From NCBI GenBank assembly GCA_964347335.1, contig CAYFYO010000002.1:4911-68910 (forward strand): a DNA stretch of 64,000 nucleotides, read 5' to 3'. Numbering within the stretch: the stretch's first letter is position 1; every line of letters starts with the position of its first letter. Made by a program: the position numbers and the translations under genes. Source of the DNA: an uncultured Thermodesulfobacteriota bacterium (lineage in GTDB: Bacteria > Desulfobacterota > BSN033 > WVXP01). Under the pieces are notes generated by a model. That model saw only the letters and a list, made by a program, of their open reading frames with translations. It was not told where the DNA came from and did not search any database. Below, piece by piece: positions 4,709 to 64,000 of this stretch.

Positions 4709-5152
4709 CTAGGGCTTTCGAGTCCAGACCGTTGTTCGACCGATCAGGGAAAACCCAATGTAGCCCCGGACTTTCAGCGTATCACCCTTGAGGTTCATCT
4801 TACAGGAATAGGTCTTCCCGTTGTCCGGATCGTAAATCTTACCGCCCACCCATTTGTTATCGCCGTCATATCTGAAGCCCCACACGATGTTCAGACCGAT
4901 GATCTTGCGGTCTCTTTTGCCAGGGTCAGGGTTCTCCGTATCCAGCTTCTCAGTCCCGTCCTCATTCTTCGGCTCTTTGAGCCAGACGATCTTCCCGCAG
5001 AATTGGTCGTCGCACCGGTAGACCTCGACGACAGCTTTCCCCTCTTCGGTTAACCAATGCCCAAGAATGGCATCGCCTTCACCGTGTTGGGCATACACAT
5101 TCAAAATCTGCAACAGGATCAGACATGTCGTAAACAGAAATAGCCGTTTCAT
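4709..5152 (-). CDS. secreted DUF2147-family protein
   Basis: Signal peptide MKRLFLFTTCLILLQILNVYA. GKIVW...NPDP...GGKIYDPDNGKTYSCKM...RGYIGF matches the DUF2147 signature. Stop is TAG. Confidence 0.7.
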   Translation of the reverse strand: MKRLFLFTTCLILLQILNVYAQHGEGDAILGHWLTEEGKAVVEVYRCDDQFCGKIVWLKEPKNEDGTEKLDTENPDPGKRDRKIIGLNIVWGFRYDGDNKWVGGKIYDPDNGKTYSCKMNLKGDTLKVRGYIGFSLIGRTTVWTRKP

Positions 5153-30180: not shown

Positions 30181-30782
30181 GGCCCTCTTCGCCTTTTCAC
30201 CTCTTGAGTGATTTCGAGAAACTCCACTTTCTTTTCAACGAGAAGCACAAAGAGATGATAGAGGACATCGACGCTTTCTTCGATGAGCCGCTTTTTGGAT
30301 TCGCGCTTCGCCGCATGGATCACCTCTCCCGATTCCTCACCCACTTTTTCACAGATTCTGTTCAGGCCTCTCGCAAAAAGGGAGGCCGTGTAGGAGCCCT
30401 CAGGCATCTTTTCCTTACGCTCAGCAATGACAGCATACAGCTCATTGAACATGTCATGTCCCTTGGTGGTGCGAAAGCACGATGTCGAACCTGTATGACA
30501 TGTGGGGCCCTGTGGTGAGACTTGAACCAGGAGGGCGTCCCCGTCGCAGTCAGCCTGCACTTTGACCAAATCCAAAGTGTTTCCACTCGTTTCACCCTTC
30601 ATCCAAAGCCGTCCCCTTGACCGACTGTGAAACCAAACCCGGTTTGTCTGGAGTGTCCTTTCCAGCGCTTCCTGATTCATATAGCCGAGCATCAAGACCA
30701 CGCCTGTTTCCGCGTCCTGAACAATGGCAGGGATCAGTCCATTTTCCCTTTTCCAGTTGAGTTCGAGTCTCGTCTGTTTCAT
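30177..30782 (-). CDS. hisIE: bifunctional phosphoribosyl-AMP cyclohydrolase / phosphoribosyl-ATP pyrophosphatase
   Basis: HisI block ([19 protein letters not shown]) followed by a HisE-like C-terminus. The start overlaps the upstream stop as ATGA. Confidence 0.85.
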
Positions 30783-32911
30783 GACCGAATCGGTATGTTA
30801 TTCTCGCTGAGATAGGCCTTCAGTTCGGGAATTTCAAGCTCCCGGTAATGAAAGAGACTGGCCGCAAGTGCCGCATCGGCCTTTCCCTCGACAAAAGCTT
30901 CCAAGAAGTGGACCTTTGTTCCTGCTCCACTGGATGCGATAATTGGAATGCTCACGTTTTCGGAGAATGTCCGCAAGAGCTCAATGTCATAGCCATTCTT
31001 CATGCCGTCTTTATCGAGAGAGTTCACCAAGAGCTCTCCCGCGCCCAGACTTTCCATCTGTCTCGCAAAGGCAACCGCATCAACTCCAGTCGGCTCTTTG
31101 CCACTTTTGATATACAGCTCCCAGTGATCGCCCCTCCTTTTTGGATCAATGGAGATCACGATGCATTGGGAGCCGAACTGCTCGGCCGCAGCCTTCACAA
31201 AGCCGGGATCCTGCACCGCCGCCGAACCGATGGACACCTTATCAGCTCCGCATTTGAGGAGATTTCTGATCGTCTGGAGTGACCGAATTCCGCCACCTAC
31301 GGTGAACGGAATGTTGATGTTTTGAGAGATCCTTCTCACCAGATTATAGAAGGTGTCTCTATTTTCCACCGTCGCCATAATGTCGAGATACACAAGCTCG
31401 TCCGCTCCCATTTCACTGTAAAGCTTACCGAGTTCGACAGGATCACCGGCATCTCGAAGCTGAAGGTAGTTCGTACCCTTGACAACTCTCCCCTCTTTGA
31501 TATCCATACACGCGATGATCCGCCTTGCCAGGCTCGCCCGTCCTCCCGAGGTTTCTTCAAATTCGGTGCATACGGGAAGCTCTCGTTTCGCCCACGCCCT
31601 GAGATCGACTTTACCCTCATAGAGTGCTTTGCCGATGACAACGCCCCAAGCCCCCATACGATCGAGCTTTCTGACATCCTCGTCCGAGGAAATGCCCCCG
31701 GCGACAATGATGCGAAAGGGGGATTCGAGCACCTCCTCGATGAACGCAAAATCTGGACTCTTGAGCGTTCCGTCTCTCCGGATATCTGTCAGAATGACGA
31801 ACTCGACGCCGAGTCCTCGCAAATCACGGAGAAAATCGAATAAGGTTCTCTCGGCCGTTTCCTGCCAGCCTTTAATTGCGACCTCGCCATCCCGCACGTC
31901 AACCGCCACGACGATGCGACTTTTCCCGTATTTGCTGATCAACCGCTCGATGAGCCGGGGATTGGCCAAAGCCGAGGTTCCCAGAACAACCCTTCTCACC
32001 CCACCTTCGAGGTAGCTCTTCGCGTCTTCATAGGTTCTGATTCCACCCCCAACCTGTACGGAAATATTCAAAGATCGTGTGATTTTGAGAATCTGCTCCA
32101 TGTGCCCTGGCGTGCCCTCTCTCGCACCATTCAAATCGACGATGTGGATGATGGAGGCCCCATGGTTCTGGAAGTTGACAGCCTGCTCATGTGGATCCTC
32201 GGAGTAAATCGTGCGCTGGCTGTAATCGCCTTGAATGAGCCGGACACATTTACCGTCGAGAAGATCCAGCGCGGGAATCACCTCGATCTTTCCCGCTTTG
32301 CGAAGCGGCACTTTGCAGAAATTGTAGAGGAGCTTGAGACCAACCGGGCCCGATTTTTCCGGATGAAACTGAACGCCATAGAAATTGTCTTGCCTGAGGA
32401 TCGCTACGAATTCTTGCCCATAAGCTGATTTGCCCAGAGTCACACGTTCGTCAGCATCGACATAATAGGAGTTAACGAAGTAGAAATATGAGCCATCGGG
32501 AATTTCACTGAAAAGGGGATCCTCCTGGATTTGGTGCACGGCATTCCACCCGATCTGAGGAACCTTAATTCTGAGTTTTGGACCCTTATCCGTTACGAAT
32601 CGGTTGACCCTTCCGTCGACAATCCCGAGGCAGGTTGTATTGTCTTCTTCGGAAAAGGGCAGAAGAAGCTGCATGCCTAAGCAAATACCGAGAAACGGCA
32701 CCTTGACGTCCTTGATCACCCTATCGAGGTGCTTTTTCTTCAGTTCCCTCATCGCTGGAGCTGCCCTTCCCACACCCGGGAAAATCACTCGATCGGCCGC
32801 GCTGATAATGTCCCGGTCGGCCGTGACCGTATAGGTTACCCCCAGTGAGTCGAGGGCATTGGTTACCGAGGCGATATTTCCCGACCTGTAATCGATGACC
32901 GCAACTTTCAT
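30779..32911 (-). CDS. hisHAF: tri-functional fusion HisH (glutaminase) - HisA (ProFAR isomerase) - HisF (IGP synthase cyclase)
   Basis: HisH motifs GICLGMQ...FHPE. His[15 protein letters not shown]...GGGIR. His[16 protein letters not shown]...GGGIRS...IASSGAG. All three lie in one 710-aa polypeptide. ATGA overlaps occur with hisB upstream and hisIE downstream. Confidence 0.85.
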
Positions 32912-33969
32912 ATGACTCCCTTCGTTGATGGTAAGGAATCTTCCAGACGACGGTCCGGTTCGCACGCTATTCTCAAAGCCCGCCCAAAGGCCTTGAAGAT
33001 GGCCTCTATTTTATGATGCTCATTTCTGCTGTACCGAACGTTGACATGGATGTTCGCTCTAAGGGACTCAGATAGTGATCGGAAAAAATGTTCGACCATT
33101 TCTGTCGGGAGATCTCCGACTTTCTCGCGCTTGAATTCACAGCTGAAAACGAGATAAGGCCGGCCACCCAGATCCAAAGCGACTTCTGCCAATGTATCGT
33201 CCATTGGCAATAGAAAACCATATCGTGAGATCCCTTTTCTCGGGCCTAATGCTCTCGAGATCGATTGGCCCAGGGTCAGACCAACATCTTCGACCACGTG
33301 ATGTTCGTCCACGTTTGAAACGGCCTTGGCTCGGATTCTCAGGTCTATGAGCGAGTGTTTGGAGAGCTGCTCCAGCATGTGGTTGAAGAACTTCAGCCCA
33401 GTCTCGATCTGAAAGTCTCCTGTTCCATCGAGGTTGCATTGGATGAATACATCCGTTTCCTCGGTCTTTCTTTCTACATTGGCCAGCCTTGGAAAGGAAC
33501 CATTCGTTTGCATCCTGACTCCCCATACACCGAGATTTCTGGCAAACTCCATATCCGCTTCCCGATCACCGATCATGATCGATCGGTCGAGACCGACCTT
33601 TTGTTGTCGGAGAAAATCTTGAACGAGACCGGTACGAGGCTTCCGGCAGTCGCAGTCATCCTCGGCAAAGTGTGGACAAATGAGGATTCGATAGAATTCG
33701 ATTCCTTCCTTTCTGAGCAGCTCCAGGAGCCTCTTCTGAGGCCTTTGGAAGTCTGCTTCTGGAAAAGAGGAGGTCCCCCGACCGTCCTGATTCGAAATCA
33801 TCACCAACCAATACCCTTCCTCTTTGAGCCGCTTCAGGCCTCCCACAACACCCGGAAGCATCCTCACCTTTTCAACCAAGTCGATCTGTCTCGTATCGGG
33901 TGGCTCGAAGATCAGCGTCCCGTCCCGGTCAAGGAAAGCGATCTTCAGTTCTGACGATAAACCTGCCAT
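32908..33969 (-). CDS. hisB: bifunctional histidinol-phosphatase (HAD) / imidazoleglycerol-phosphate dehydratase
   Basis: N-terminal HAD motif FLDRDGT. C-terminal IGPD motifs (ETDV..., HHVVED, RYGF). 353 aa. Confidence 0.85.
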   Translation of the reverse strand: MAGLSSELKIAFLDRDGTLIFEPPDTRQIDLVEKVRMLPGVVGGLKRLKEEGYWLVMISNQDGRGTSSFPEADFQRPQKRLLELLRKEGIEFYRILICPHFAEDDCDCRKPRTGLVQDFLRQQKVGLDRSIMIGDREADMEFARNLGVWGVRMQTNGSFPRLANVERKTEETDVFIQCNLDGTGDFQIETGLKFFNHMLEQLSKHSLIDLRIRAKAVSNVDEHHVVEDVGLTLGQSISRALGPRKGISRYGFLLPMDDTLAEVALDLGGRPYLVFSCEFKREKVGDLPTEMVEHFFRSLSESLRANIHVNVRYSRNEHHKIEAIFKAFGRALRIACEPDRRLEDSLPSTKGVI

Positions 33970-45249: not shown

Positions 45250-46297
45250 CCAAAGGGGTCAAGTCTGCTCTTGACTCTTTTTCAAGACCGCCATAAGCCT
45301 TTCAACTCTTTCCCTCAGGTTTCGATCTTTGTCAATGAGGGCCCTCATTCTCTCAATGACGCTACTGACCGAACTGTATTTGCCAATGTGAAACTCTTGG
45401 CCAACTTGTTTTAGACCGTCACCTCGCAGCCGTCGAGTCAAATAGATCGCCACGTTTCTCGGCTGATTGAGTGTCCCTCTTCTGGATCGCAGGAGATCAG
45501 ATTCACTGACCCCGTAAGACTCGCAAACAACCCTTTTGATTCGATCCGGATCAGGTGCAAGTTCTCTGAACTGGGGGACCTCATCATCGACTTCCCTGGG
45601 GAAAAACCTCCCTTTTATTCGATTGAGAAAAACCTCTGAGCCCAAAAGCGACGGCCACTTCTTACTCTCGAATATCTGGGCGATCTCTGCTTCATCTTCC
45701 AAAGACACAAACTCCCGGTACCTCCTTACCCTTTCCGTCTTTCTCTGAGATAACATGGAAAGGATATATACCTTGTGGAGCCAGTTCCATCTCTTTGCAT
45801 CCGATAAATAGCCTTTATGGCTACTCCAATCGTATCTTTCGAGCTTTTCCGCTAGGCCTGCCCTCAGGGGGTTTCGGTGAATGTATCGGACCAGTTGCAG
45901 TAGATAGCTTTCAGCATCAACGAGAATCGACTTGTATCGACCCCGAAACAGTTGTCCGTCACTCTGGTGAAGGCGGTTGTAGCGCTGGGTGTAAACACCA
46001 TCGATGTGTCGCATACATCTGGATATATTACCATCCGGGGTCTGGACGAGAAGATGGTAGTGGTTGGGCACCAAGCAGTAGGCCGCAACCCGAAGATTCC
46101 AGATCTCAGCGGTTTTCTTGAGAAGATGAACAAAAAGCGCGTAGTCCCGATGACTCCGAAATACGGGCTCACCCCGTCTCCCGCGGTTCATCACATGATA
46201 CCATGCATCTCGATACTGTATTCTCAGTGGCCTGGACATGTGGGAAGCGGTATCACAAAGATTCGATAAGAGTCAAGAGCAGACTTGACCCCTTTTT
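45250..46297 (-). mobile_element. REP-associated/IS200-like tyrosine transposase (RAYT) element bounded by 28-bp perfect inverted repeats and flanked by 7-bp direct repeats AGGAGTC
   Basis: Left IR 45252-45279 AAAGGGGTCAAGTCTGCTCTTGACTCTT is the reverse complement of right IR 46268-46296. Each IR is itself a hairpin (GTCAAG..CTTGAC). AGGAGTC occurs at 45243-45249 and 46298-46304. Confidence 0.7.
45259..46239 (-). CDS. Y1 HUH transposase (IS200/RAYT type) fused to a DnaA C-terminal-like HTH domain
   Basis: HUH motif VPNHYHLLVQ and catalytic Y region in the N-terminal 150 aa. The C-terminus VAIYLTRRL...YSSVSSVIERM resembles Bac_DnaA_C. The stop codon sits inside the left IR. Confidence 0.75.
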   Translation of the reverse strand: MSRPLRIQYRDAWYHVMNRGRRGEPVFRSHRDYALFVHLLKKTAEIWNLRVAAYCLVPNHYHLLVQTPDGNISRCMRHIDGVYTQRYNRLHQSDGQLFRGRYKSILVDAESYLLQLVRYIHRNPLRAGLAEKLERYDWSSHKGYLSDAKRWNWLHKVYILSMLSQRKTERVRRYREFVSLEDEAEIAQIFESKKWPSLLGSEVFLNRIKGRFFPREVDDEVPQFRELAPDPDRIKRVVCESYGVSESDLLRSRRGTLNQPRNVAIYLTRRLRGDGLKQVGQEFHIGKYSSVSSVIERMRALIDKDRNLRERVERLMAVLKKSQEQT

Positions 46298-53272: not shown

Positions 53273-53516
53273 TCATGTCCTCTTGTATGACAATTTCCTT
53301 ATAGAGTTATAAACTTAGCGCAGCCAATTTTGGTGAAGCGCCTTCGAATTAAATGATTCTTGGGGCCTTTCCACTGGACCACACACTAGGCATTTTTCAG
53401 GGGTGGAAAAAGTTTTGTTCCTATCATCCATCTGAGAAGGAATATCCCTTCTCGTTCACATGATACATTCTTTTTGACAACAAACAAGGGAATCAGTCCA
53501 CTGGAGGGCAAAAAAT

Positions 53517-55259
53517 TTATCTTTCCTCTTGTGCCATACGGTTATACAACTGGTAAACACTTTCTAGTTGTTGGTCTGTGACATCAAAAACGGTTTGCTT
53601 TGATGACAGGACCTCTTCCCTAAAGAAATCCGGTACTTTATCCACGCGCCTCAATCCCGCTTTTTCGTTGAACGAATATTCTCGAACCAAGGTCTCCACC
53701 CCTATCTGAATCATATCCGCTTTGGAAAAAACTTTTCCATATTTTGCAGTCAGGAAATCTGCGAAGATGTCCAGTGTCTCCAAGGTTGAACCGACGAAAA
53801 AACACACACCCGCCGCATCAATGGATGCCAACATAATCTGAAGCTCCCGAGAGATCACTTCTTGACCTTTCGGGTCCGCCGGTCCTACAACATAGGATGG
53901 ATCAAATCCCGGTCGTCCAGGCAGACAACTGCCCGCAGTATGGTCTGCTCCCATAGGGGACGTGCAGAAGGTTACTCCCATTCCCTTTAAGGCTCTCGGG
54001 TCAAATGCTGGCATTCCTTGACCCTTAACGGTTGGCACCCTGGTCTGACCAAAAACCCTTCCCACGGCCGCCGCTCCACTGCCCACCACTCGTCCCAGAA
54101 CTGTACCCTGCCCGATCTCTTGAACGACTTTGATAGCCCCCCCGCCGTCACCAAACGCCAAATATCCCGATTCCATCAATACACCTAACGCTCCCCCTGT
54201 TTCGATCGTATCAAGCCCAATGTCATCGCACAGCCTGTCCAACTGTGCGATGATATCCAGGTCGTTAACTCCCAGATTTGACCCCAGCATGACAATCGTT
54301 TCGTACTCCAAACTGGTTGTGAGGAACTTTCGTCGCTTATCCATGTAAACGTTGGAACAGGCGATGGTACACCCGGGCATACATGCATGAGTCGGTTTAC
54401 CCTCCCTTTCAATAATCAATTCATGAAGAGTTTCTCCGCTAATCTCATTCGCATGATTAAAACGTCCATCTCTAAAATTCCTCGTTGGGAGCCCACCCGC
54501 CTCATTGATAATGTTGATTGATACGGCGGTCCCATATTTGGAGAGGGCTGTCTTCGTCTCGGCCATTTTCTTCCCAAACTCCCTCGAGAGCTTTACAATC
54601 CTTTCCCTGTCCGAAAAAGATGGGGTAACCGTCTCGGTGGTGTCAAATACGATGGCCTTAATCCCTTTAGAGCCCATCACCGCACCACATCCCCCCCGTG
54701 CCGCATGATGTCCTGGCCTTCCGCTTGTGTCCATCGCGGCGATGCTCGCGGCACCCAATTTCATTTCCCCTGCCACGCCGATAGAAAGAATTCCACTTCT
54801 TTCCCCGAACCTCTCCCTCAGGTGTTGCACAACCTCGTAGTTCTTCATTCCCCACAACTTATCGGCTTTCTCAATTGTGAGTCCGCCTTTGGTGACTCTC
54901 AAAATATGTGCTTCTCTGGAAGTTGGCCTTCCTTCGATAATAATGGCCTTCGTACCAGCTGCGGCCATTCTCTGGCCAGCCGAACCACCAACATTGCTTT
55001 CCTTGATTCCCCCTGTTAAGAGGCTCTTGCACCCTATCGAAAGACGACCGTTGCAGCTGAACGGAATGCCGGCCATATATCCAGTTGCGATTACGAGCTT
55101 ATTCCTTTCCCCGAGAGGATGGCAAAGGGGATCCACCTCATCTGCCACAATCTTTGATGTTAAGGCTCGTCCACCTAGAAGCGTATCCTTCCCACTCTCC
55201 CAATTCTGCTCAATGACTTTCTCCTTACGCATATTTACACGATAGATCTTCTCCCTCAT
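53517..55259 (-). CDS. aldehyde:ferredoxin oxidoreductase (tungsten-containing AOR family)
   Basis: AOR N- and C-domain sequence. Start MREKIYRVNM at 55259 has GGGAGG 6 nt upstream. The ORF-track start is 81 nt further upstream without an RBS. Confidence 0.85.
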   Translation of the reverse strand: MREKIYRVNMRKEKVIEQNWESGKDTLLGGRALTSKIVADEVDPLCHPLGERNKLVIATGYMAGIPFSCNGRLSIGCKSLLTGGIKESNVGGSAGQRMAAAGTKAIIIEGRPTSREAHILRVTKGGLTIEKADKLWGMKNYEVVQHLRERFGERSGILSIGVAGEMKLGAASIAAMDTSGRPGHHAARGGCGAVMGSKGIKAIVFDTTETVTPSFSDRERIVKLSREFGKKMAETKTALSKYGTAVSINIINEAGGLPTRNFRDGRFNHANEISGETLHELIIEREGKPTHACMPGCTIACSNVYMDKRRKFLTTSLEYETIVMLGSNLGVNDLDIIAQLDRLCDDIGLDTIETGGALGVLMESGYLAFGDGGGAIKVVQEIGQGTVLGRVVGSGAAAVGRVFGQTRVPTVKGQGMPAFDPRALKGMGVTFCTSPMGADHTAGSCLPGRPGFDPSYVVGPADPKGQEVISRELQIMLASIDAAGVCFFVGSTLETLDIFADFLTAKYGKVFSKADMIQIGVETLVREYSFNEKAGLRRVDKVPDFFREEVLSSKQTVFDVTDQQLESVYQLYNRMAQEER

Positions 55260-55976
55260 TCTCGCCTCCCTCATGAGGCCATCGGTTTGGTTTCCTTCCT
55301 TCAAAGCAGACAAGTAGGCCTCAATTTCTTCATAAGTCAAAAATCATAATACTGGGTCACCATCTAAGTGAATTACGGGGTGACATTGATCTCAACTCGT
55401 CATCTGGGGCACGATCGCTTACTCTCCTAAACCGCCTCTATCCTGTGCGATACCATTCAAAAAGCCTTCGAGACGCATGATGTCCACGACGGACTTAGCT
55501 GAGTGAGTAATTTCTGTAACAGTCATAGCCATGTTTCGGAGCCTTAGGGTTTCCGTCCCGAATATCTAATTTCGTTCCCTTCATTTCTGGCATATCCCCA
55601 AAAAGATTCGAAGCATTTGGGATTTCAACTGGTCGCTAACTTTATTCCGGACCTTCCCAGGTCCCCCAAAACCTCTTCCAGAGCTGCCTTTGCTGGATCC
55701 GGTTCATCCCCCGTGTCTATATCGCTACGACCCAGTCTGAAGTTTGCGGCCGAATTGTTTTTTCCCGCGGATGCCCAGAGGAGTGCGGCTTACGTCGGCA
55801 AGATGAAACGATGATAGTCTGGTCTGTTTAAGACACGGAATTCACTATGATAGCGAGACCGCGAAGCAGCCGGTACCGAGAACACGACCTGACTCGTTGA
55901 ATTGAATGAATAGCACAATGGACACTGTTGATTCTCGATCCTCCTACTTTCGCAGAGACTTCCAGTCTTAATGGCA

Positions 55977-56828
55977 TCAAGGTTTCGCTCTCAATTCTAC
56001 AAAGGGCCGATAAGCTTCTGGGACTGATTGCCCCTTCCAATCCTTCATCATCTCCCGGTATTCATATAGTTTTGAAATGTCGATGGTTGCTATAGCTATT
56101 CCATCGCTAAATTCACCTGCATTGGCTAAAATCTCCCCCATCGGACTTATGATTCTACTGCCACCTAAAAAATACATATCTCCAGAAGGAGTATTCCTAA
56201 AATAACCCACGGGATTAGGAGCCACAATATAGATCATATTGCTCCATGCGGCAGCACAAAGCAGATACCGATGAGCGTCAACCCACTCACCAGAGCAAAT
56301 ATGGGGAGCAACTAATACTTCGCATCCCTTCTGAGTTGCTACCCATGGAGCAATAGGAACATCCAGGTCTACCGCTGCCAGAAGACCTATACTCCCGATG
56401 CCATCTGTCTTATAAACTGGGATCTCCTTGCCTCGTTCAAACTGAGCTTCCTCCCATATTCCGGGAACAGGGAAAATATGAACCTTTCGATACTTAGCCA
56501 AAACCTCTCCCGAAGGACCTATGAAAGGAAGAGTTGAATAGAACTTGTCCCCTTCCTTCTCTACCAAAGTCCCAGCAGCTACGTACATCTCATAGCGCAC
56601 AGCTATCTCCCCAAGGCGTTGAGTCGTAGGTCCTGGTATGGGTTCAGCATCTTTCTTTCTCCCATAGGCAGTCAAAAAATACTCCTGGAGCACGGCCAGT
56701 TTTGCCCCTTCCTCCCCAGCCTCGCTCAAAAGAGCTTCTGCCTTGGCCAGGTTCTTCCCCTTATCTTCGGGATCCCACTCGAATTGGATAGCCGCCACCT
56801 TATATCTTGGTCTCTCCATATCCTCCAC
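55977..56828 (-). CDS. carbon-nitrogen hydrolase (nitrilase/amidase superfamily)
   Basis: CN-hydrolase fold with E-K-C triad context (..YRKVH..., ..GICYD-like). 283 aa. Confidence 0.8.
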   Translation of the reverse strand: MEDMERPRYKVAAIQFEWDPEDKGKNLAKAEALLSEAGEEGAKLAVLQEYFLTAYGRKKDAEPIPGPTTQRLGEIAVRYEMYVAAGTLVEKEGDKFYSTLPFIGPSGEVLAKYRKVHIFPVPGIWEEAQFERGKEIPVYKTDGIGSIGLLAAVDLDVPIAPWVATQKGCEVLVAPHICSGEWVDAHRYLLCAAAWSNMIYIVAPNPVGYFRNTPSGDMYFLGGSRIISPMGEILANAGEFSDGIAIATIDISKLYEYREMMKDWKGQSVPEAYRPFVELRAKP

Positions 56829-56839
56829 CCCTCCTGAGA

Positions 56840-57790
56840 TTATCCGGATATAAACTGGTAGTTCTTGATACCCTTTTTGTCCAAATCAATGATGACACCT
56901 CTCAAAATCCCCTCCGAGTACTCACTGCCGGGATTCAAACATAATGTTCTCCCAATCCTAAAAGCACCCCTTGACTCATGAATGTGTCCGTGTAACCCCA
57001 AAAGGGGCTGATATCTCTCTATACAAACCCTAACGGCCTCACTGCCCACTGGAACCTCATGAAATTGGCCTCCCAGACCCACTGGCCTCAAACTCTCATC
57101 GATTTCAATGGCCGTGTCTATCCCAGTATCGTTAGGAGGACAATGCAGATTAAAGATACACTTCTCCATGTTCTGGATCCGCGAGGCTACCTCTTCGATC
57201 TTCCCCCTCATCTCTTCTTCAGAGACATCTCTGGGACACCTCCAGGGAGTAAGATTAGACAAACTCGAGCTTATCATCTCATGGTGCTCATCAATCTGAA
57301 CTACCTGGTCCTCCGGATCGACAACATAGTCAGAACTCCTCAGTATTGCATTAATGTCCCAAGGATCATCATTGCCTCCGGTCATATAGCATCTAATTCC
57401 AGTAGGCCTAAGACGTTCCTCAGCTAACTCTATCCACTGCTTTAGCCTATCTCGCATCAAACTAGCAAAAAGCTCATTCTTTTGTTCTGGAGAAGAACTG
57501 AGCTTCTCCTTCTCCTCGGCAGTAAGGACATAGAAATAGTAACCTGAATTTACAATCCGTTTTTTCAACTCTTCCAGCTCTTCTGGTGTTCTCAAAGTAC
57601 TTGATTTCTCGAAGAAATCACATTGAAATCTATCCTCAGACACTCTAATGATAGGAACGATCATTTTCCCCGTGAGATCACCACCCAGAATAAGAACATC
57701 CGCCTTATAGAACTTCCCAGCATTGACAAATTTTCTAAAACATCTCTCCGACCCGTGAACGTCCGTGGCAAAAAAAACTCTCGTGGCCAT
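56840..57790 (-). CDS. calcineurin-like metallophosphoesterase
   Basis: Metallophosphoesterase motif series DVHGSE, GGDLTGK, GGNDD, GHIHE. 316 aa. Confidence 0.7.
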   Translation of the reverse strand: MATRVFFATDVHGSERCFRKFVNAGKFYKADVLILGGDLTGKMIVPIIRVSEDRFQCDFFEKSSTLRTPEELEELKKRIVNSGYYFYVLTAEEKEKLSSSPEQKNELFASLMRDRLKQWIELAEERLRPTGIRCYMTGGNDDPWDINAILRSSDYVVDPEDQVVQIDEHHEMISSSLSNLTPWRCPRDVSEEEMRGKIEEVASRIQNMEKCIFNLHCPPNDTGIDTAIEIDESLRPVGLGGQFHEVPVGSEAVRVCIERYQPLLGLHGHIHESRGAFRIGRTLCLNPGSEYSEGILRGVIIDLDKKGIKNYQFISG

Positions 57791-57802
57791 TAACTCTTCC
57801 CC

Positions 57803-58540
57803 TCAAGATTTCACAATATCCTCTACATCGGCGTACCATTTCATTCGAGTGCCAATCATAGCCCTTAGCTTCCACCCCAGCGACTTCTCTTGCTGCTCAA
57901 TCGCACCAATAAGTTTTTCAATACGACTTTCCACCTTCGACAATTCCATACCCAAAAGATCCTTACGGTCTCTAACTTTCTCACTAAGTTTCTTCAAATT
58001 TGATTTCGCCGTATAATAAAAACCCCAATCACCCGAAAGAAGTTGAGCAATATATTTTGAATTAATTGTCTCCTCGTCATTTCCCGACACATCGTGTTCT
58101 ATGAAAAGCACGATCAGATCTTTGAAATCCTTCTCGGTGATTTTAACTATCTGTAGCTTCTCCAGTACTAAGTCAGCGAGACTTATCGTCGGGTAATCAA
58201 CGGTTAGGCGATTCTTGAACTCTATGCAATGACACATTTCCAACCGGTCGAAAAAGACATCTGCCACCCGATTACCGCTACTACTAACAAATTTCTTTCG
58301 ATCCATGAATCGTCCGTAGTTTAGCGAATAACCCAACTCCTCAAACATAGAGACGACCTGTCCTGAATAAGACCTTAAAGAAGCAAAATCCAGATCCGAA
58401 ATATCCCGACGTAGTTGATCAAGTAGGTTGGTGGAGGCGGGGCAATGAATTCTATATGCCACCGCCCCCATTACCCTTAGGAGAATACCTCTCTCCTCAG
58501 CGGTCTTAACAAATCTCCTTGCTTCCTCCTCCCACCGCAT
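57803..58540 (-). CDS. hypothetical protein with minimal nucleotidyltransferase-fold signature
   Basis: GAVAYRIHCPASTNLLDQLRRDISDLDF fits the hG[GS]..x..DhD pattern of the pol-beta NTase fold. 245 aa. Confidence 0.4.
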   Translation of the reverse strand: MRWEEEARRFVKTAEERGILLRVMGAVAYRIHCPASTNLLDQLRRDISDLDFASLRSYSGQVVSMFEELGYSLNYGRFMDRKKFVSSSGNRVADVFFDRLEMCHCIEFKNRLTVDYPTISLADLVLEKLQIVKITEKDFKDLIVLFIEHDVSGNDEETINSKYIAQLLSGDWGFYYTAKSNLKKLSEKVRDRKDLLGMELSKVESRIEKLIGAIEQQEKSLGWKLRAMIGTRMKWYADVEDIVKS

Positions 58541-58571
58541 TTAGCTATTCTCCAATCTTACACGTCGATGA

Positions 58572-60194
58572 CTACTCCGGCGGTATTTCCTTGAAAGCCA
58601 GGCCCACATCGATGCCCTTTTTCCTGTTATATAGCTTCATACCGTAGAAGAGAAGAATCCCTGCCAAAATTACCAACAGAAACACTCCAGTTACCGGTAA
58701 GGTCCAAACGAACCGATAGGCCGGATCCACCAGGTATATGAAGGATCTCAATGCGCTAATCACGGCGAAAATGAACCCAGAAATGCTCACGATTGGAACT
58801 CTACCGATTCGTTGATTCATCGGTGACGCCTCGAAGATTTCCTTCTTCCAGTACGGAAAAACCATCGCAGCAACCCCTAGCAGTATGAAAGAAATATTCT
58901 CCAAGGAGTAAGCTGGGATCATTTTAAAAAACGCTGCCCGATAGACATAGATCAACAGACTTATCTCTCCCCCGATCATGGCCACAATGATCCCTTTGAT
59001 AGGAACTTTGTATCTGGGATTAACATCTCCCAAAAACTGAGGCGCAACCCTATCTAAAGACCAGGCCATCAGACATCTGGATATGACTGTATAGACGGTA
59101 GGGATATACATAACAGCCCAGATGCTCATGGCCACCCCGATAAAACACAGGGCAGCTATGTTATCGGTAACGAGACTAGCGAAAGTGCTATAATACGGAG
59201 GTACGCTCCAAGGAAGAGCATATCCTTCAGATCCTAAAGTAAACAGGTAGTTAAGGGATTGGAAAAGCTCAAGCCCGACAGTCTTTGTAAGCGCCCACAT
59301 TACCAGGATCAGAGAAACGGCGGCCGCCAACATTCCTCCAACTATCGCCAATATCTGGCTTCGTTCAACCTTTTTCATTTCCCCGGCTATATAGGAGGAA
59401 TTAAAGAATCCCCACACAAGGTTACCCAGGGCCGCAGTCAGTATTATCTTTGCTGTAGGTAAGTTTCTAAAGGGTAGTCCGATCTGAGCTCCCTCCGCCT
59501 TGGCTTTCCCAATGGCTACACTGGCATAGTCTTGAACAGCACCAAAGTGTTCGCTGAATTCACTGAATCGTCTTAGGAAGAACGAACGGTCTGCAGTCAT
59601 TAATAGAATAAGCGTCAAAATGAATCCAGCAATGCCAATAATGCCCATGACCAATTGAAATCGCATGTAACGTCTCATCCCCAGCATGGGGAGGATGGAA
59701 AACCCAATTATGAAAACTGAGCCAACTACAAAGGAATTGATGGGCGTTGCCAAAGATTCTGCCAGACCCATTAGAAATGGTATATTTGCAGAGGCGCCAA
59801 CTGTTGCTAGGGTCACCGGAAAACTCCACGTACCTACCATGCCAGCCCACATTCCGAGCCAAAAGAAGAAAGCCATTACGTGTAGCCAGTTGCCCACGAA
59901 CCCAATAGCCGGACTTAGAATACGGCTAACATAAACGTAGTCCCCTCCAGAACGAGGCATAGCCGTGGAAAGTGCAACGTAGCTATAACATCCACTAACC
60001 AAGACCAGGAAAGCAGCAATGGATATCGCCCAGATGAAGTGGCCCTGAGGAAACACAAAAACTGCATCTGCGATTACGAACCATGCGGCGCACCCAAGAG
60101 AATAGTTAAACATGTTAAAAAGTAGAGCTCCCGAAGGTGTCACATGTCTAATCAAACCACTAGCTGTCCTTGTAAAGACATCCTTTTGAGCCAT
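58572..60194 (-). CDS. APC-superfamily amino acid/polyamine permease
   Basis: 540 aa with 12-14 TM segments and APC-like sequence. Stop is TAG. Confidence 0.8.
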   Translation of the reverse strand: MAQKDVFTRTASGLIRHVTPSGALLFNMFNYSLGCAAWFVIADAVFVFPQGHFIWAISIAAFLVLVSGCYSYVALSTAMPRSGGDYVYVSRILSPAIGFVGNWLHVMAFFFWLGMWAGMVGTWSFPVTLATVGASANIPFLMGLAESLATPINSFVVGSVFIIGFSILPMLGMRRYMRFQLVMGIIGIAGFILTLILLMTADRSFFLRRFSEFSEHFGAVQDYASVAIGKAKAEGAQIGLPFRNLPTAKIILTAALGNLVWGFFNSSYIAGEMKKVERSQILAIVGGMLAAAVSLILVMWALTKTVGLELFQSLNYLFTLGSEGYALPWSVPPYYSTFASLVTDNIAALCFIGVAMSIWAVMYIPTVYTVISRCLMAWSLDRVAPQFLGDVNPRYKVPIKGIIVAMIGGEISLLIYVYRAAFFKMIPAYSLENISFILLGVAAMVFPYWKKEIFEASPMNQRIGRVPIVSISGFIFAVISALRSFIYLVDPAYRFVWTLPVTGVFLLVILAGILLFYGMKLYNRKKGIDVGLAFKEIPPE

Positions 60195-60332
60195 TTTCTT
60201 GTACCTCCTCCCTCAAGGTTCTCCCGACATTAAATTGAAGTCTCCCCATAACTTAAAGAATCAAATCAGGAGTTTTTGATGATCACCTCCTTTCATGTTC
60301 TGCACTCTTCCGTATCACCCTCTGAAACCCCA

Positions 60333-61124
60333 CTAGGAGGGTGAATCACACGAAGCCAGCCTACCCCCATCAATTACGAAATCAGACCCGGTGACAAAAG
60401 AGGATTCGTCCGAGGCCAGATAGAGAACTAGTGAGGCGATCTCCTCGGGCATTGCAAGTCTGTGCATAGGTGTTTTTCGGGCATGCTCCTCGAGGATTAC
60501 TTCGGCCGGCTTTCCTTTCTGGCGGGAGTAAAAATCCATTTCCCACTCAAGCATGTCTGTCCTGACGGACCCAGGGCTGATACAATTGACTCTGATGTTC
60601 TTTTGGACACACTCCAGTGCCATGGTCTTTGTTAGAAGAACTACCGCGGCCTTTGCTGCGCAATAGGCTGCATAGTTTTGGGCACCCGATATACCGAAAA
60701 TTGAGGATGTGTTTATGATCGATCCCCCACCCTGTTCTTCCATAAGAGGAATAGCAAACTTCGATACAAGAAACACACTCTTTAGATTGACAGCCATCAT
60801 TCTATCCCATTCATCTTCCGTCATTTCCACGATTTTTCTAATCAGAACAATTCCGGCATTATTAAATAACACATCCAATTTTCCGTATTCCTTTATTGTC
60901 AATCTTGCAATTCTTTCTGCATCTTCAGCCCTAGATGCATCCGCCCTGACGAAAATGGCAGAGCCGTCACCCTTATTTATTTGATTTGCGGCTGCCTCCC
61001 CTTTTTCAGGATTTCTTCCAACAATGACAACTTTCGATCCTTCACGTGAAAAAATTCTGGCCGTCGCTAATCCTATGCCGGATGTACCTCCGACAATGAG
61101 CGAGACCTTGTCTCTTAGTCTCAT
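60333..61124 (-). CDS. SDR-family oxidoreductase
   Basis: TGGTSGIG Rossmann motif, NNAG, and a Y/K active-site pair. GGAGGG lies 5 nt upstream of ATG 61124. Stop is TAG. Confidence 0.85.
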   Translation of the reverse strand: MRLRDKVSLIVGGTSGIGLATARIFSREGSKVVIVGRNPEKGEAAANQINKGDGSAIFVRADASRAEDAERIARLTIKEYGKLDVLFNNAGIVLIRKIVEMTEDEWDRMMAVNLKSVFLVSKFAIPLMEEQGGGSIINTSSIFGISGAQNYAAYCAAKAAVVLLTKTMALECVQKNIRVNCISPGSVRTDMLEWEMDFYSRQKGKPAEVILEEHARKTPMHRLAMPEEIASLVLYLASDESSFVTGSDFVIDGGRLASCDSPS

Positions 61125-61367
61125 GAAACCCTCCAAGGTCTGGTGGTACTTCCGATTACCTAGCCCGACTTCCAATGAAGCTGGAACCTCTATCCCTGGC
61201 GAGCAAAGTTCACTCTCCGTTGCTATCAAAACTTAGAATGCCACAGTGCGGCGTTGCGCCTCTCAGCCAAACCGAACTGTTATCCCTACCCGAGGCGCCC
61301 GAACCTTGGCCAGGTGTCAACATCTGAACTTGTAACTTCCAGATAGCATATATAGCGTCAATTTCAG

Positions 61368-62756
61368 TCAACGCCTACCAATTCTCTTTTTGAACCTACT
61401 AACCGAGTTAATCTCAATGTCTAACAGTTCCGCTATCCTAAACTTCGCATCGATCCCTTTGGCTCGGTTAGGAAGCGATCTTACCAAACCGATATCCAGA
61501 TCGTCTCTCACTTCGGCCATCAATACAGGGTCCGATAGATCCCTAACCGACACGGATAGTCTGCCGGCCACATACTCCTTCGCCTCTTTGATCTTCATAC
61601 CATCGGTCATTTGCATACGTGCCACAAGATCTCCCGCGGTACGCATTCCGCCCATGCCCGAGGCAACGGCGTGAGTTATCGCCATACCCAAAGGATCGCC
61701 TACACCAACCTACAATCCGTCCAACCGACAGATTTCAACCATAGCTTTAGACGCTCGGGATACTGCATCTATTGGAGGGTTGTCCACCACAGGAACCGCA
61801 CCTACGCCCATACCCATGTTCACATGGATCGGAATAGTTGAATTCTCAACACAGGTCTTCACAAATGTCACAGCCCGGGCCAAGTTCCATGGACAGGACT
61901 TGGAGGTATTCGTATTGACTACCGGGCCAAAAATAGTCACCCCTGCTTTTTCAGCCAAGGCGACTTGCTGGTGAGGATACAGCCCCGCTAGCCGTACGCC
62001 CTGATAGGTCAACTCCCCATGCATTCCAAGGATGAACTCGCCGGCCATGCCGATCTCGACACACATGTCGGGGTATTTCCCTTTGAGAATCTCGCAAGCC
62101 TCCAAGGTCGCCAGAAAGTCCGCGTCCCCAGCAGCCCCAGTGGTGTCGAAGTTGATCCCATCAGCCCCAGATTCATACATGCCGCTCGCCACATAAACCA
62201 TATCCTTAACTGCGTGCTGCACAGCAGCTTCGTAGGATGCTCTTGCTTCGACGATTTTCCCTTGAGGGAGTAACTCTGCAGGATTCGGTGTAGGGCCATC
62301 AGGCTGACTGTAGGACCCGAGATTCGGCATGGCTCCATAGAACAAGGGGATGCTTGTCACCAGGAGGGCCTGTTCAAATTCCTGCTGTTCGTCACCCAGA
62401 ATGGTCTTTACGGGTTTAAAACTGTAGTCTATATGGGCCATCTCCATGGTATCGGCCCCCAATGCGCGTTCCATAATTTGTATGTTATGGATTCTCCCGG
62501 TGTTTATTCCTAACCGCTGAAGCTTCAAGGTGCCACCATCAAAAGAAAGGACCACCTCGTTTCCTGGCTCTACACCTACAACTCTCGCTGGAGAAGCACA
62601 GATCTCAAAAAGATGCCCTAATTCGTCCTCCGAAAGGGAAGGAACGTCACCTTTCTCAGCAGCGTCTATCGTCCCTTCCTCCAAGTCCTTGGTTAATTGG
62701 GATTCATCTATTTCGATGAAAGAACCGTCGCCCATCCGTGTGATTATTTTGTTCAT
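61368..62756 (-). CDS. mtbB: dimethylamine methyltransferase MtbB-family homolog containing one in-frame TAG (61710-61712): candidate pyrrolysine read-through or nonsense-split gene
   Basis: N-terminus [11 protein letters not shown]...EIP.LS.DE and internal blocks [76 protein letters not shown]. Then [38 protein letters not shown]... continues in the same frame with no RBS or ATG. Total 462 codons. Confidence 0.6.
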
Positions 62757-62937
62757 AAACAATTCCTTTTTTGTCCAAATCTAGAACTCTTGAAATCTCG
62801 CACAGTGTCACCAGAACAGCCCCAGCCAAATTCGGAGGTTGTTATCAAATGCTCTTCAAACGACAACTCAATAACATATCCTCAACCTTCCGCTTTCGCG
62901 GGAGATCCCAGTTGGAATGGCATCATGGGTTACACCT

Positions 62938-63280
62938 TAATTCCACAAGGGGTCTGTAGGCTTCCGGGACTGATTGCCCCTTCCAATCCTTCATCATCTC
63001 CCGGTATTCAAGTAATTTTGAAATGTCGACGGCCGCTATGGCCATTCTATAGCTGAATTCACCTGCGTTGGCTAAAATCTCACCTATAGGCAGTCAAACA
63101 ATACTCCTGGAGCACGGCCAGTTTTGCCCCTTCCTCCCCAGTTCCCTCAAAAGAGCCTCTGCCTTGCCCAGGTTCTTTTCCTTATCTTTGGGATCCCACT
63201 CGAATTAGATAGCCGCCACTTAATGCCTTAAGTCTTTCCAGAACCTTCACCCCTTCTGAGATTATCCGGATACAAATCGG
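62938..63280 (-). pseudogene. decayed, internally deleted copy of the carbon-nitrogen hydrolase gene (paralog of 55977-56828)
   Basis: 62938-63088 matches 55993-56143 and 63089-63280 matches 56668-56858, at about 88% identity. About 520 bp are missing between short microhomologies (CTCCCCCATCGG / CTCCCATAGG). The frame is disrupted. Confidence 0.75.
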
Positions 63281-63307
63281 CAAACCAGGACTCGTAATAT
63301 GACTTCA

Positions 63308-64000
63308 CTACATTCTCACATTTGCTATATTAATTACCGTCTTCTTGATGTCTGTGTACTCGTGTATCCCGAACTCGCTGCACTCTCGGCCAACACCGCT
63401 GCCCTTGACTCCGCCGAAAGGACTCAACTGATCCCAGTGATTTGTCGTATCATTGACAATTACCGCGCCAAACTTCATCTTTTCACTCATTTCAATTGCA
63501 TCTCTTAAATTACTCGTGAAAACCGCTCCTTGTAATCCGTACGGGTTACTATTGGCAATCTCCAAGGCCTCTTCTTTGTTTTTCACTTTTATTATCGTCG
63601 CTACCGGACCAAATGTTTCTTCCCTAGCAATGATCATATCCTGCGTCACATTGTCCAGCACCGTGGCCTCATAGAATAGGTCCTTGCGTTTTCCACCTGC
63701 CAATAATCTTGCTCCCTTGTCCACAGCATCTTTTATGTGACGGTCAATGATCTGGGCCTGTTCTTCTGAAGCCACCGGCCCCATATCTGTTTCTTCTTTT
63801 GAGGGATCTCCAACTTTTATCTTTTTTACTTTATCCAGCAACTTTTCGACAAATTCTTCATGAACTCTTTGAAGGATTATCAATCTTTCGCATGACGTGC
63901 AGTTTTGACCGGCTTGATGGTATACGCCAAACATGGCAGCATCAACTGCAGCATCTATATTTGCGTCCTCAAGAACTACTATCGGACCAGTATCGCCAAG
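63308..64000 (-). CDS. aldehyde dehydrogenase (NAD(P)+), C-terminal part; gene continues beyond window end
   Basis: ALDH catalytic Cys context FGVYHQAGQNCTS and EETFGPV. The frame stays open to nt 64000. Confidence 0.85.
   Translation of the reverse strand, partial: LGDTGPIVVLEDANIDAAVDAAMFGVYHQAGQNCTSCERLIILQRVHEEFVEKLLDKVKKIKVGDPSKEETDMGPVASEEQAQIIDRHIKDAVDKGARLLAGGKRKDLFYEATVLDNVTQDMIIAREETFGPVATIIKVKNKEEALEIANSNPYGLQGAVFTSNLRDAIEMSEKMKFGAVIVNDTTNHWDQLSPFGGVKGSGVGRECSEFGIHEYTDIKKTVINIANVRM

Follow-up and report, generated by a model that had tools for sequence, protein, structure and literature searches.

The 64,000-nucleotide stretch of DNA analysed here (the window; positions 4,911 to 68,910 of contig CAYFYO010000002.1, assembly GCA_964347335.1) comes from an uncultured Thermodesulfobacteriota bacterium and carries two direct-orientation copies of a nitrilase-superfamily gene. 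Copy A is intact and closes a four-gene operon. Copy B, ~6.9 kb away, lies between mtbB, a pyrrolysine-type dimethylamine methyltransferase gene, and a gene for an aldehyde dehydrogenase (ALDH); it is a pseudogene, the residue of a dead nitrilase paralogue. Probably the 3′ end of the operon was copied within this genome long ago, in a segmental duplication that took place inside an older island of low GC, and the extra copy then lost sequence and decayed. An earlier note on this DNA had read the pair as the footprint of either a duplication or a single-crossover (Campbell-type) integration, with decay of one copy, and as the mark of a likely recent acquisition or rearrangement of the mtbB block. 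Duplication with decay is borne out.

The repeat pair and the defects of copy B

A repeat search and blastn agree on the second copy and on its direct orientation, as the earlier note had it, and the pair is the sole repeat of such kind within the window. It aligns in two segments: 56658–56854 of copy A matches 63078–63276 of copy B at 88% identity (E = 5e-65), and 55947–56135 matches 62893–63081 at 83% (E = 1e-46). In a MAFFT alignment with relatives the homology runs from 55925/55940 to 56860 in A and from 62871/62886 to 63282 in B, which takes it ~35–50 nucleotides (nt) beyond the nitrilase stop codon and ~32 nt 5′ of the start codon. The left limit of 62938 given earlier for copy B is accordingly too far in, and the 88% identity given with it holds for the 5′ part of the gene only; over all shared coding positions the copies agree at 276 of 321 (86.0%).

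The largest defect of copy B is an internal deletion of 524 nt, which takes out residues ~56–229 and, with them, the catalytic Lys and Cys. Its breakpoints lie in an imperfect microhomology, CC(T/G)ATGGG(G)GAGA, which reads CTCCCATAGG and CTCCCCCATCGG on the plus strand and CCTATGGGAG and CCGATGGGGGAG in the direction of the gene; the segment of copy A that is missing is bounded by CCTATGGGAGA and CCGATGGGGGAGA. A loss of ~520 bp at such breakpoints had been described before, correctly. There are also two frameshifts (a +1 insertion at 63231 and a −1 deletion at 63145/63146) and two in-frame TAA stops, at codons 10 and 15.

A metallophosphoesterase gene end upstream of the pseudogene

The start-equivalent of copy B is preceded directly by the 3′ end of a metallophosphoesterase gene (c[g]atttgtatccggataa, encoding FVSG-stop). 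In the MAFFT alignment the stretch upstream of the nitrilase start or its equivalent reads cgatttgtatccggataatctcag in copy B, cagtttatatccggataatctcag in copy A and cagttcatatccggataatctaag in L001, a contig with the nearest homologue of the nitrilase; in the last two it comprises the final codons of the metallophosphoesterase gene (QFISG-stop) and the spacer. Copy B keeps the last 5–6 codons and the stop of that gene. The A/B homology ends ~20 nt inside it, and 26 nt separate this end from the ALDH stop codon. The tail is not seen 5′ of the nitrilase in three other loci, L003, L004 and L005, where other genes precede the nitrilase. Since copy B carries the tail, it derives from a metallophosphoesterase–nitrilase context and not from a resident nitrilase next to ALDH. 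A gene that had always stood beside ALDH should have no such tail, and this is what chiefly speaks against a simple Campbell crossover with a resident nitrilase.

Kinship of the copies and mode of decay

Over the shared coding positions, copy A is 77.8% and copy B 74.5% identical to L001, both below the A–B value. Informative sites in four-taxon comparisons (with L003, L004 or L005 as outgroup) unite A with B against L001 plus outgroup in 16–23 cases vs 3–6 for each alternative, and still in 10–18 vs 3–6 when two identical tracts, described below, are removed. By these counts, A and B are sisters relative to L001.

With L001 used to polarise the changes, 14 fall on the A branch, distributed 3/2/9 over the three codon positions, and 25 on the B branch, distributed 12/5/8; with 32% at third positions, the latter is close to the neutral expectation of one-third. 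Functional divergence between A and L001 places 62–66% of the changes at third positions, and the B branch differs from this pattern with a Fisher p of 0.011 in the shared segments and 0.0018 over the whole gene. The Jukes–Cantor (JC) branch lengths are 0.053 for A, 0.102 for B (~2 times A) and 0.210 for L001. Copy B thus seems to have evolved free of constraint for most of the time since the split, or for all of it, and such a neutral pattern would fit a redundant internal duplicate better than a working orthologue that diverged outside this genome. AT-to-GC changes outnumber GC-to-AT changes on both branches (23:10 on B, 13:5 on A), as expected if both copies have been resident in this higher-GC genome since they split. 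The total A–B divergence, 14% (JC 0.155), is not recent on the usual bacterial scale, which is uncalibrated for this lineage; the earlier dating of the event as recent does not hold on that scale.

Two tracts of 42 and 45 nt are identical in A and B on a background of ~80% identity outside them, and random placement of the observed A/B differences seldom yields such runs (p values in Table 1). A and L001 differ at 13 of the 87 tract positions, so the tracts are not simply invariant sequence, and the simplest reading that they suggest is short-patch gene conversion from the live copy A. With gene conversion, the duplication may be older than the A–B divergence suggests. The 42-nt tract could also serve homologous recombination as a substrate.

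The intact nitrilase closes a conserved operon

Copy A has the Glu-Lys-Cys catalytic triad (Glu46, Lys112 and Cys175, invariant in family alignment A1) and an alternative ATG start at 56819. The operon that it closes has the order permease, 245-aa protein, metallophosphoesterase, nitrilase, with spacers of 31, 12 and 11 nt. The nearest homologue of copy A, P0002 (86% amino acid identity), is found on two 5-kb Joint Genome Institute (JGI) contigs, L001 and L002, which are colinear with window positions 55993–60196 at 77.5% nucleotide identity and have the same four genes with similarly short spacers. A 69% nitrilase homologue in L003 is part of the same four-gene set, though the genes are arranged differently there (the set spans 55977–60194 in the window, 576–4800 in L001 and 10001–14631 in L003). 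The metallophosphoesterase is 78% identical in amino acid sequence to its L001 ortholog and 48% to that of L003, and the permease is 83% identical to that of L001. The 245-aa protein has no match in Pfam, NCBIfam or the Protein Data Bank (PDB), and its single-sequence AlphaFold2 model is unusable (predicted local distance difference test score, pLDDT, of 44.5). The earlier note had counted five genes between the copies; Pfam agrees on the metallophosphoesterase, the APC permease, the short-chain dehydrogenase/reductase (SDR) and MtbB, while the label 'NTase-fold' for the 245-aa protein is unconfirmed.

Neither the SDR gene nor mtbB occurs upstream of the permease in L001, and in the window each of the two is set off by a gap of 138 nt. 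The contrast between this and the tight, conserved operon means that the five-gene block is composite, and that the intact nitrilase is an operon end rather than a border element; the bracketed block therefore does not behave as the single unit for which it had been taken. L001 and L002, which come from two samples, both end near the operon borders.

More distant members of the nitrilase subfamily stand in other catabolic contexts, next to genes for aldehyde:ferredoxin oxidoreductase (AOR), FMN reductases, transporters or a distant nitrilase paralogue. The tandem nitrilase pairs of L005 and L099 were considered as kin of copy B and rejected, being distant paralogues (34–37% identity). A scan of 185,579 species-representative genomes with alignment A1 yielded no relative of the subfamily. 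Exact-match look-ups found no record of the window nitrilase, P0001, or of P0242 (the N-terminal part of MtbB). The metallophosphoesterase gave one exact match, on L010, a 2.7-kb contig identical to 56690–59388 that reaches no informative repeat junction.

A low-GC island that extends beyond the repeats

The 37 genes at 49–53272 have a GC content at third codon positions (GC3) of 0.601 ± 0.031 (range 0.54–0.67). In six genes of the region (nitrilase, metallophosphoesterase, 245-aa protein, permease, SDR and ALDH) it drops to 0.43–0.50, i.e. −3.4 to −5.5 standard deviations (sd). The low-GC stretch occupies 53300–64000 of the window: one break lies at ~53.3–55.9 kb, and the other side runs past copy B and off the end of the window. 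ALDH, outside the bracket, is as low in GC3 as the block, so foreign DNA is not marked off by the repeats, and a compositional break at the repeats, which would have favoured insertion of the block, is not there. The border of the island is probably at the AOR gene. Homologues of the island genes come from contigs of 35–43% GC. In composition, the stretch is an older, partly ameliorated island that includes ALDH. Pfam and further domain searches detected no integrase, transposase, replication or transfer gene in 53–64 kb, and there is no tRNA gene in the window, so that island borders marked by an integrase, a tRNA gene or direct repeats were not found, one of the two borders lying beyond the end of the window. 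With the duplication placed inside an older island that contains ALDH, the repeats say nothing on when or how mtbB arrived.

The stand-alone mtbB gene and its neighbours

The mtbB gene has an in-frame TAG (61710–61712) at the pyrrolysine position, flanked by matches to profile positions 4–353 and 355–462 of PF09505, and a PYLIS_2 element (Rfam RF02509) matches at 61613–61712 with 89.4 bits. Judged by these matches, it is a genuine pyrrolysine-type gene. None of pylT, pylS, pylB, pylC, pylD or a corrinoid-protein gene was found within the window, where mtbB stands alone. Its nearest homologues (78–79% amino acid identity, in L092 and L094) belong to a cluster of pylSc, a corrinoid protein gene, pylB, pylC, pylD, a gene for a small protein, and mtbB. 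The region upstream of the window mtbB has no homology to the pylSn–mtbB junction of L092/L094 and was rejected as its counterpart. Pyrrolysine-type methylamine methyltransferase genes are known from Deltaproteobacteria, in a symbiont of Olavius algarvensis (PMC1976440). The present gene resembles that system in the in-frame TAG at the conserved position and in its host, a member of the Thermodesulfobacteriota (former Deltaproteobacteria), and differs in being alone, with no pylS/B/C/D or corrinoid protein gene within 64 kb. MtbB resembles the host in composition more than the neighbouring genes do, and it may have a history of its own and a separate entry.

L094 (10001–14825) has two pyrrolysine-type mtbB genes in tandem and, directly after them, an AOR gene; this AOR is only 28% identical to that of the window and is no ortholog of it. 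AOR genes recur beside the nitrilase subfamily and beside mtbB in several loci. Another recurrence concerns a 20-mer, GATTTGGACAAAAAGGGTAT, which belongs to the 3′-terminal part of the metallophosphoesterase gene (56868–56887), 8 nt outside the repeat border of copy A, and returns with 18 of 20 positions identical directly 5′ of the mtbB start (62762–62781); it may be chance, and none of the models accounts for it.

Table 1. Features of the nitrilase repeat pair and of the surrounding genes (window coordinates; GC3, GC content at third codon positions)
Feature	Position	Strand	Evidence	GC3	Remarks
Repeat copy A, full extent	55925..56860	-	blastn; MAFFT with relatives		~35–50 nt 3′ flank, nitrilase, 11-nt spacer, last 6 metallophosphoesterase codons and stop
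Segment of copy A absent from copy B	56142..56665	-			524 nt
Nitrilase pseudogene, copy B	62871..63282	-	repeat search, blastn, MAFFT		
Copy B, metallophosphoesterase-tail remnant	63262-63282	-			
Copy B, nitrilase 5′ part	63088-63250	-			
Copy B, deletion junction	63087/63088				
Copy B, nitrilase 3′ part	62926-63087	-			
Copy B, stop-equivalent	62923-62925	-			TGA
Copy B, 3′ flank	62871-62922	-			
42-nt identical tract	A 56678..56719 = B 63100-63141	-	permutation p = 0.021		
45-nt identical tract	A 56020..56064 = B 62966-63010	-	permutation p = 0.0014		
Intact nitrilase-superfamily gene (CN_hydrolase), copy A	55977..56828	-	Pfam PF00795, E = 7e-47	0.430	
Metallophosphoesterase gene	56840..57790	-	Pfam PF00149, weak	0.470	316 aa
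245-aa protein gene	57803..58540	-	orthologs in L001 (72%) and L003 (36%)	0.455	
APC-superfamily permease gene	58572..60194	-	Pfam PF13520 / PF00324	0.495	540 aa; first gene of the operon
SDR gene	60333..61229	-	Pfam PF13561 / PF00106	0.451	probable ATG start at 61124
mtbB, dimethylamine methyltransferase	61368..62762	-	PF09505 and Rfam RF02509	0.544	
ALDH gene, 3′ part	63308..64000	-	Pfam PF00171	0.448	−4.9 sd; outside the bracket
AOR gene	53517..55340	-	Pfam PF02730 / PF01314	0.515	intermediate GC3; downstream of copy A
FAD-linked oxidase gene (GlcD family)	53272-51884	-	Pfam		
PurL gene	51548-48567	-	Pfam		

The wider window

Between 64000 and 48567 every gene is read from the minus strand. 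Between the nitrilase and the AOR gene there is an unusually long non-coding gap of 636–714 nt (55263–55976), in which neither an Rfam match nor a gene remnant was detected. The PYLIS element is the only hit in an Rfam scan of 55–64 kb, and a promoter/terminator scan gave counts no higher than those of shuffled controls. The rest of the window is ordinary chromosome, with genes for histidine and purine biosynthesis, UvrD, DNA ligase and ABC transporters. PurL reaches at best 66–67% identity, to Syntrophales and other Thermodesulfobacteriota genome bins, which makes the host a poorly sampled member of this phylum. None of 80 loci retrieved with PurL at 59–67% identity has the GlcD/AOR/nitrilase neighbourhood.

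Two further genes stand out. A single 728-aa open reading frame at 30779–32965 combines a class-I glutamine amidotransferase with two His_biosynth domains and looks like a hisH-hisA-hisF fusion. A 326-aa protein at 45259–46239 has an IS200-like Y1 transposase domain and a DnaA C-terminal helix-turn-helix; it lies 10 kb from the island, and no link to the island was made.

Origin of the remnant

What the data show directly are the defective repeat with its metallophosphoesterase tail, the kinship of the copies as sisters, the neutral substitutions and the composition; the tandem intermediate and the order of events are inferred. A unit of ~6.9 kb would have been duplicated in tandem; it would have begun upstream of mtbB, or upstream of the SDR gene if mtbB was a later arrival, and ended ~40 nt beyond the nitrilase stop. 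A deletion of ~6 kb would then have cleared the ALDH-proximal copy of everything before the last 6 metallophosphoesterase codons, so that the tail and the nitrilase were left. The redundant nitrilase would have decayed neutrally from about the start, gathering stops and frameshifts and losing 524 nt by slippage between microhomologies of 10–13 nt, with occasional short gene conversion from the live copy, as the two identical tracts suggest. This two-step route, tandem duplication and then deletion, is the most economical. It is a general process of bacterial genome evolution that a segment is duplicated in tandem and its redundant copy then suffers deletion and pseudogenisation, and the present case resembles it in having direct copies kilobases apart, one under purifying selection and one neutral, with a deletion at a short direct repeat. 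It is unlike the general case in that a piece of only ~0.9 kb survives of the presumed first copy of 6.9 kb, and that the tandem stage is not observed.

Several points weigh against segmental duplication. The copies are each other's closest relatives and the decay is unconstrained, as a segmental duplication predicts, but traces of other duplicated genes or of a tandem junction are missing. No remnant of a deleted copy of mtbB, SDR, permease or 245-aa protein was found in the spacers or elsewhere in the window; tblastx of the spacers 55263–55976, 62763–62892, 61125–61367, 60195–60332 and 53273–53516 against all loci and the window returned nothing. The model therefore needs a clean deletion of ~6 kb. 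The GC3 of MtbB is above that of its neighbours, and a separate entry of this gene would alter the size of the duplicated unit. The scans yielded no close genome that could show the ancestral gene order. With 25 changes on the B branch, functional divergence could account for up to ~60% of that branch, as estimated from a binomial interval, and the kinship was judged over 321 shared coding positions, L001/L002 being the one close outgroup of use. Finally, gene conversion could give a copy that is older, or foreign, the appearance of a sister.

The lack of any trace of other duplicated genes would fit a one-step ectopic copy with no tandem intermediate, in which a fragment of ~0.95 kb (metallophosphoesterase tail, nitrilase and 40 nt of flank) entered the ALDH–mtbB spacer by template switching or illegitimate recombination and was functionless from birth. 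The two sharp ends of the remnant and the neutral pattern from the start of the branch are in keeping with it. Bacteria acquire small dispersed duplications without the help of a mobile element much less often than they undergo tandem duplication with later deletion, and neither a target-site nor a junction signature was seen; such a copy is unlikely, although it is the strongest of the alternatives.

Campbell integration is an improbable account of the whole pattern. A circle with a nitrilase homologue, mtbB and the genes for SDR, permease, 245-aa protein and metallophosphoesterase would have recombined, in a single crossover, with a nitrilase resident between ALDH and AOR, and one of the hybrid copies would have decayed. 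Two direct copies of a homologous segment do flank several genes, as in a Campbell merodiploid, the whole region is compositionally foreign, and the ends of L001 and L002 near the operon borders would fit a module in variable contexts. A search with the ALDH fragment found a single close relative, at 309–969 of L011 (Logan DRR310875, a 971-nt contig; 79% nucleotide identity). Here an N-terminally truncated ALDH, behind an ABC ATPase gene, is followed 28 nt on by an AOR-like N-terminus (VKERILRVNLDTGK..., 21 codons visible) and not by a nitrilase, with nothing between, which may speak for integration; the empty site expected of relatives would be ALDH–nitrilase–AOR. Against this, the distal copy B has operon upstream sequence, the metallophosphoesterase tail as in A and L001, and not recipient-site sequence only, which is unexpected for a resident nitrilase linked to ALDH. 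The B branch is devoid of third-position bias, contrary to divergence of two orthologues at work in two genomes, and A and B have derived changes in common relative to L001. Block and outer flank, ALDH included, agree in composition, and 53–64 kb holds no integrase, replication or transfer gene nor plasmid or phage genes.

Site-specific integration leaves a different kind of repeat. In E. coli, the elements e14 and phage 21 target icd and duplicate its end. Site-specific integrative elements likewise account for gene ends such as the tRNA-gene fragments at island borders (PMC9897764). The window is similar to such cases in that a set of accessory genes has a partial, dead copy at its far end and the intact gene at the other; it differs in that there is no integrase, the repeats are 14% diverged, and the remnant keeps the 5′ end of the gene as well as the 3′ end. 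With both ends and an internal deletion, copy B was once a whole copy and not an end fragment of attachment-site (att) size.

As improbable as Campbell integration is a history of two separately acquired modules: an earlier operon module next to ALDH was mostly deleted, and a second, related one was transferred in, with or without mtbB, the similarity of the copies being due in part to gene conversion. The two identical tracts exceed chance, so conversion is plausible, and the presence of the nitrilase family in many contexts in low-GC relatives suggests mobility. The sites outside the tracts, however, still support A and B as sisters, and the AT-to-GC drift is equal on both branches. An assembly artefact, with the remnant or one junction as a mis-join, is hardly credible: the contig does come from a metagenome, its composition shifts near 53–56 kb and the independent assembly in L010 confirms 56690–59388 only, but a 14%-diverged, internally deleted copy in unique sequence is unlike a repeat collapse, identical runs reach just 42–45 nt, and the drift on both branches fits real residence in the genome.

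Implications

The outcome is chiefly corrective: the repeat is real, yet it gives no evidence of a recent mtbB insertion and should not be taken for an integration scar. The duplication itself would not surprise a specialist and belongs to ordinary genome evolution. Homologous loop-out of the intervening 6.4–6.9 kb is formally possible. It is a long shot that the low-GC stretch from AOR to past ALDH is one transferable catabolic supercluster for some nitrogen compound (ALDH, pyrrolysine-type MtbB, SDR, APC permease, 245-aa orphan, metallophosphoesterase, nitrilase-family amidase and AOR), with an orphan mtbB recruited away from its pyl and corrinoid partners and with the copies, identical in part through gene conversion, still serving as RecA-dependent substrates for loop-out or amplification of the 6.4–6.9-kb mtbB segment.

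For annotation, the value lies in the nitrilase pseudogene at 62871–63282, in the conserved four-gene operon, and in the low-GC island with a stand-alone pyrrolysine-type mtbB in a poorly sampled lineage of the Thermodesulfobacteriota. The more interesting by-products of the analysis are this stand-alone mtbB and the uncharacterised operon.

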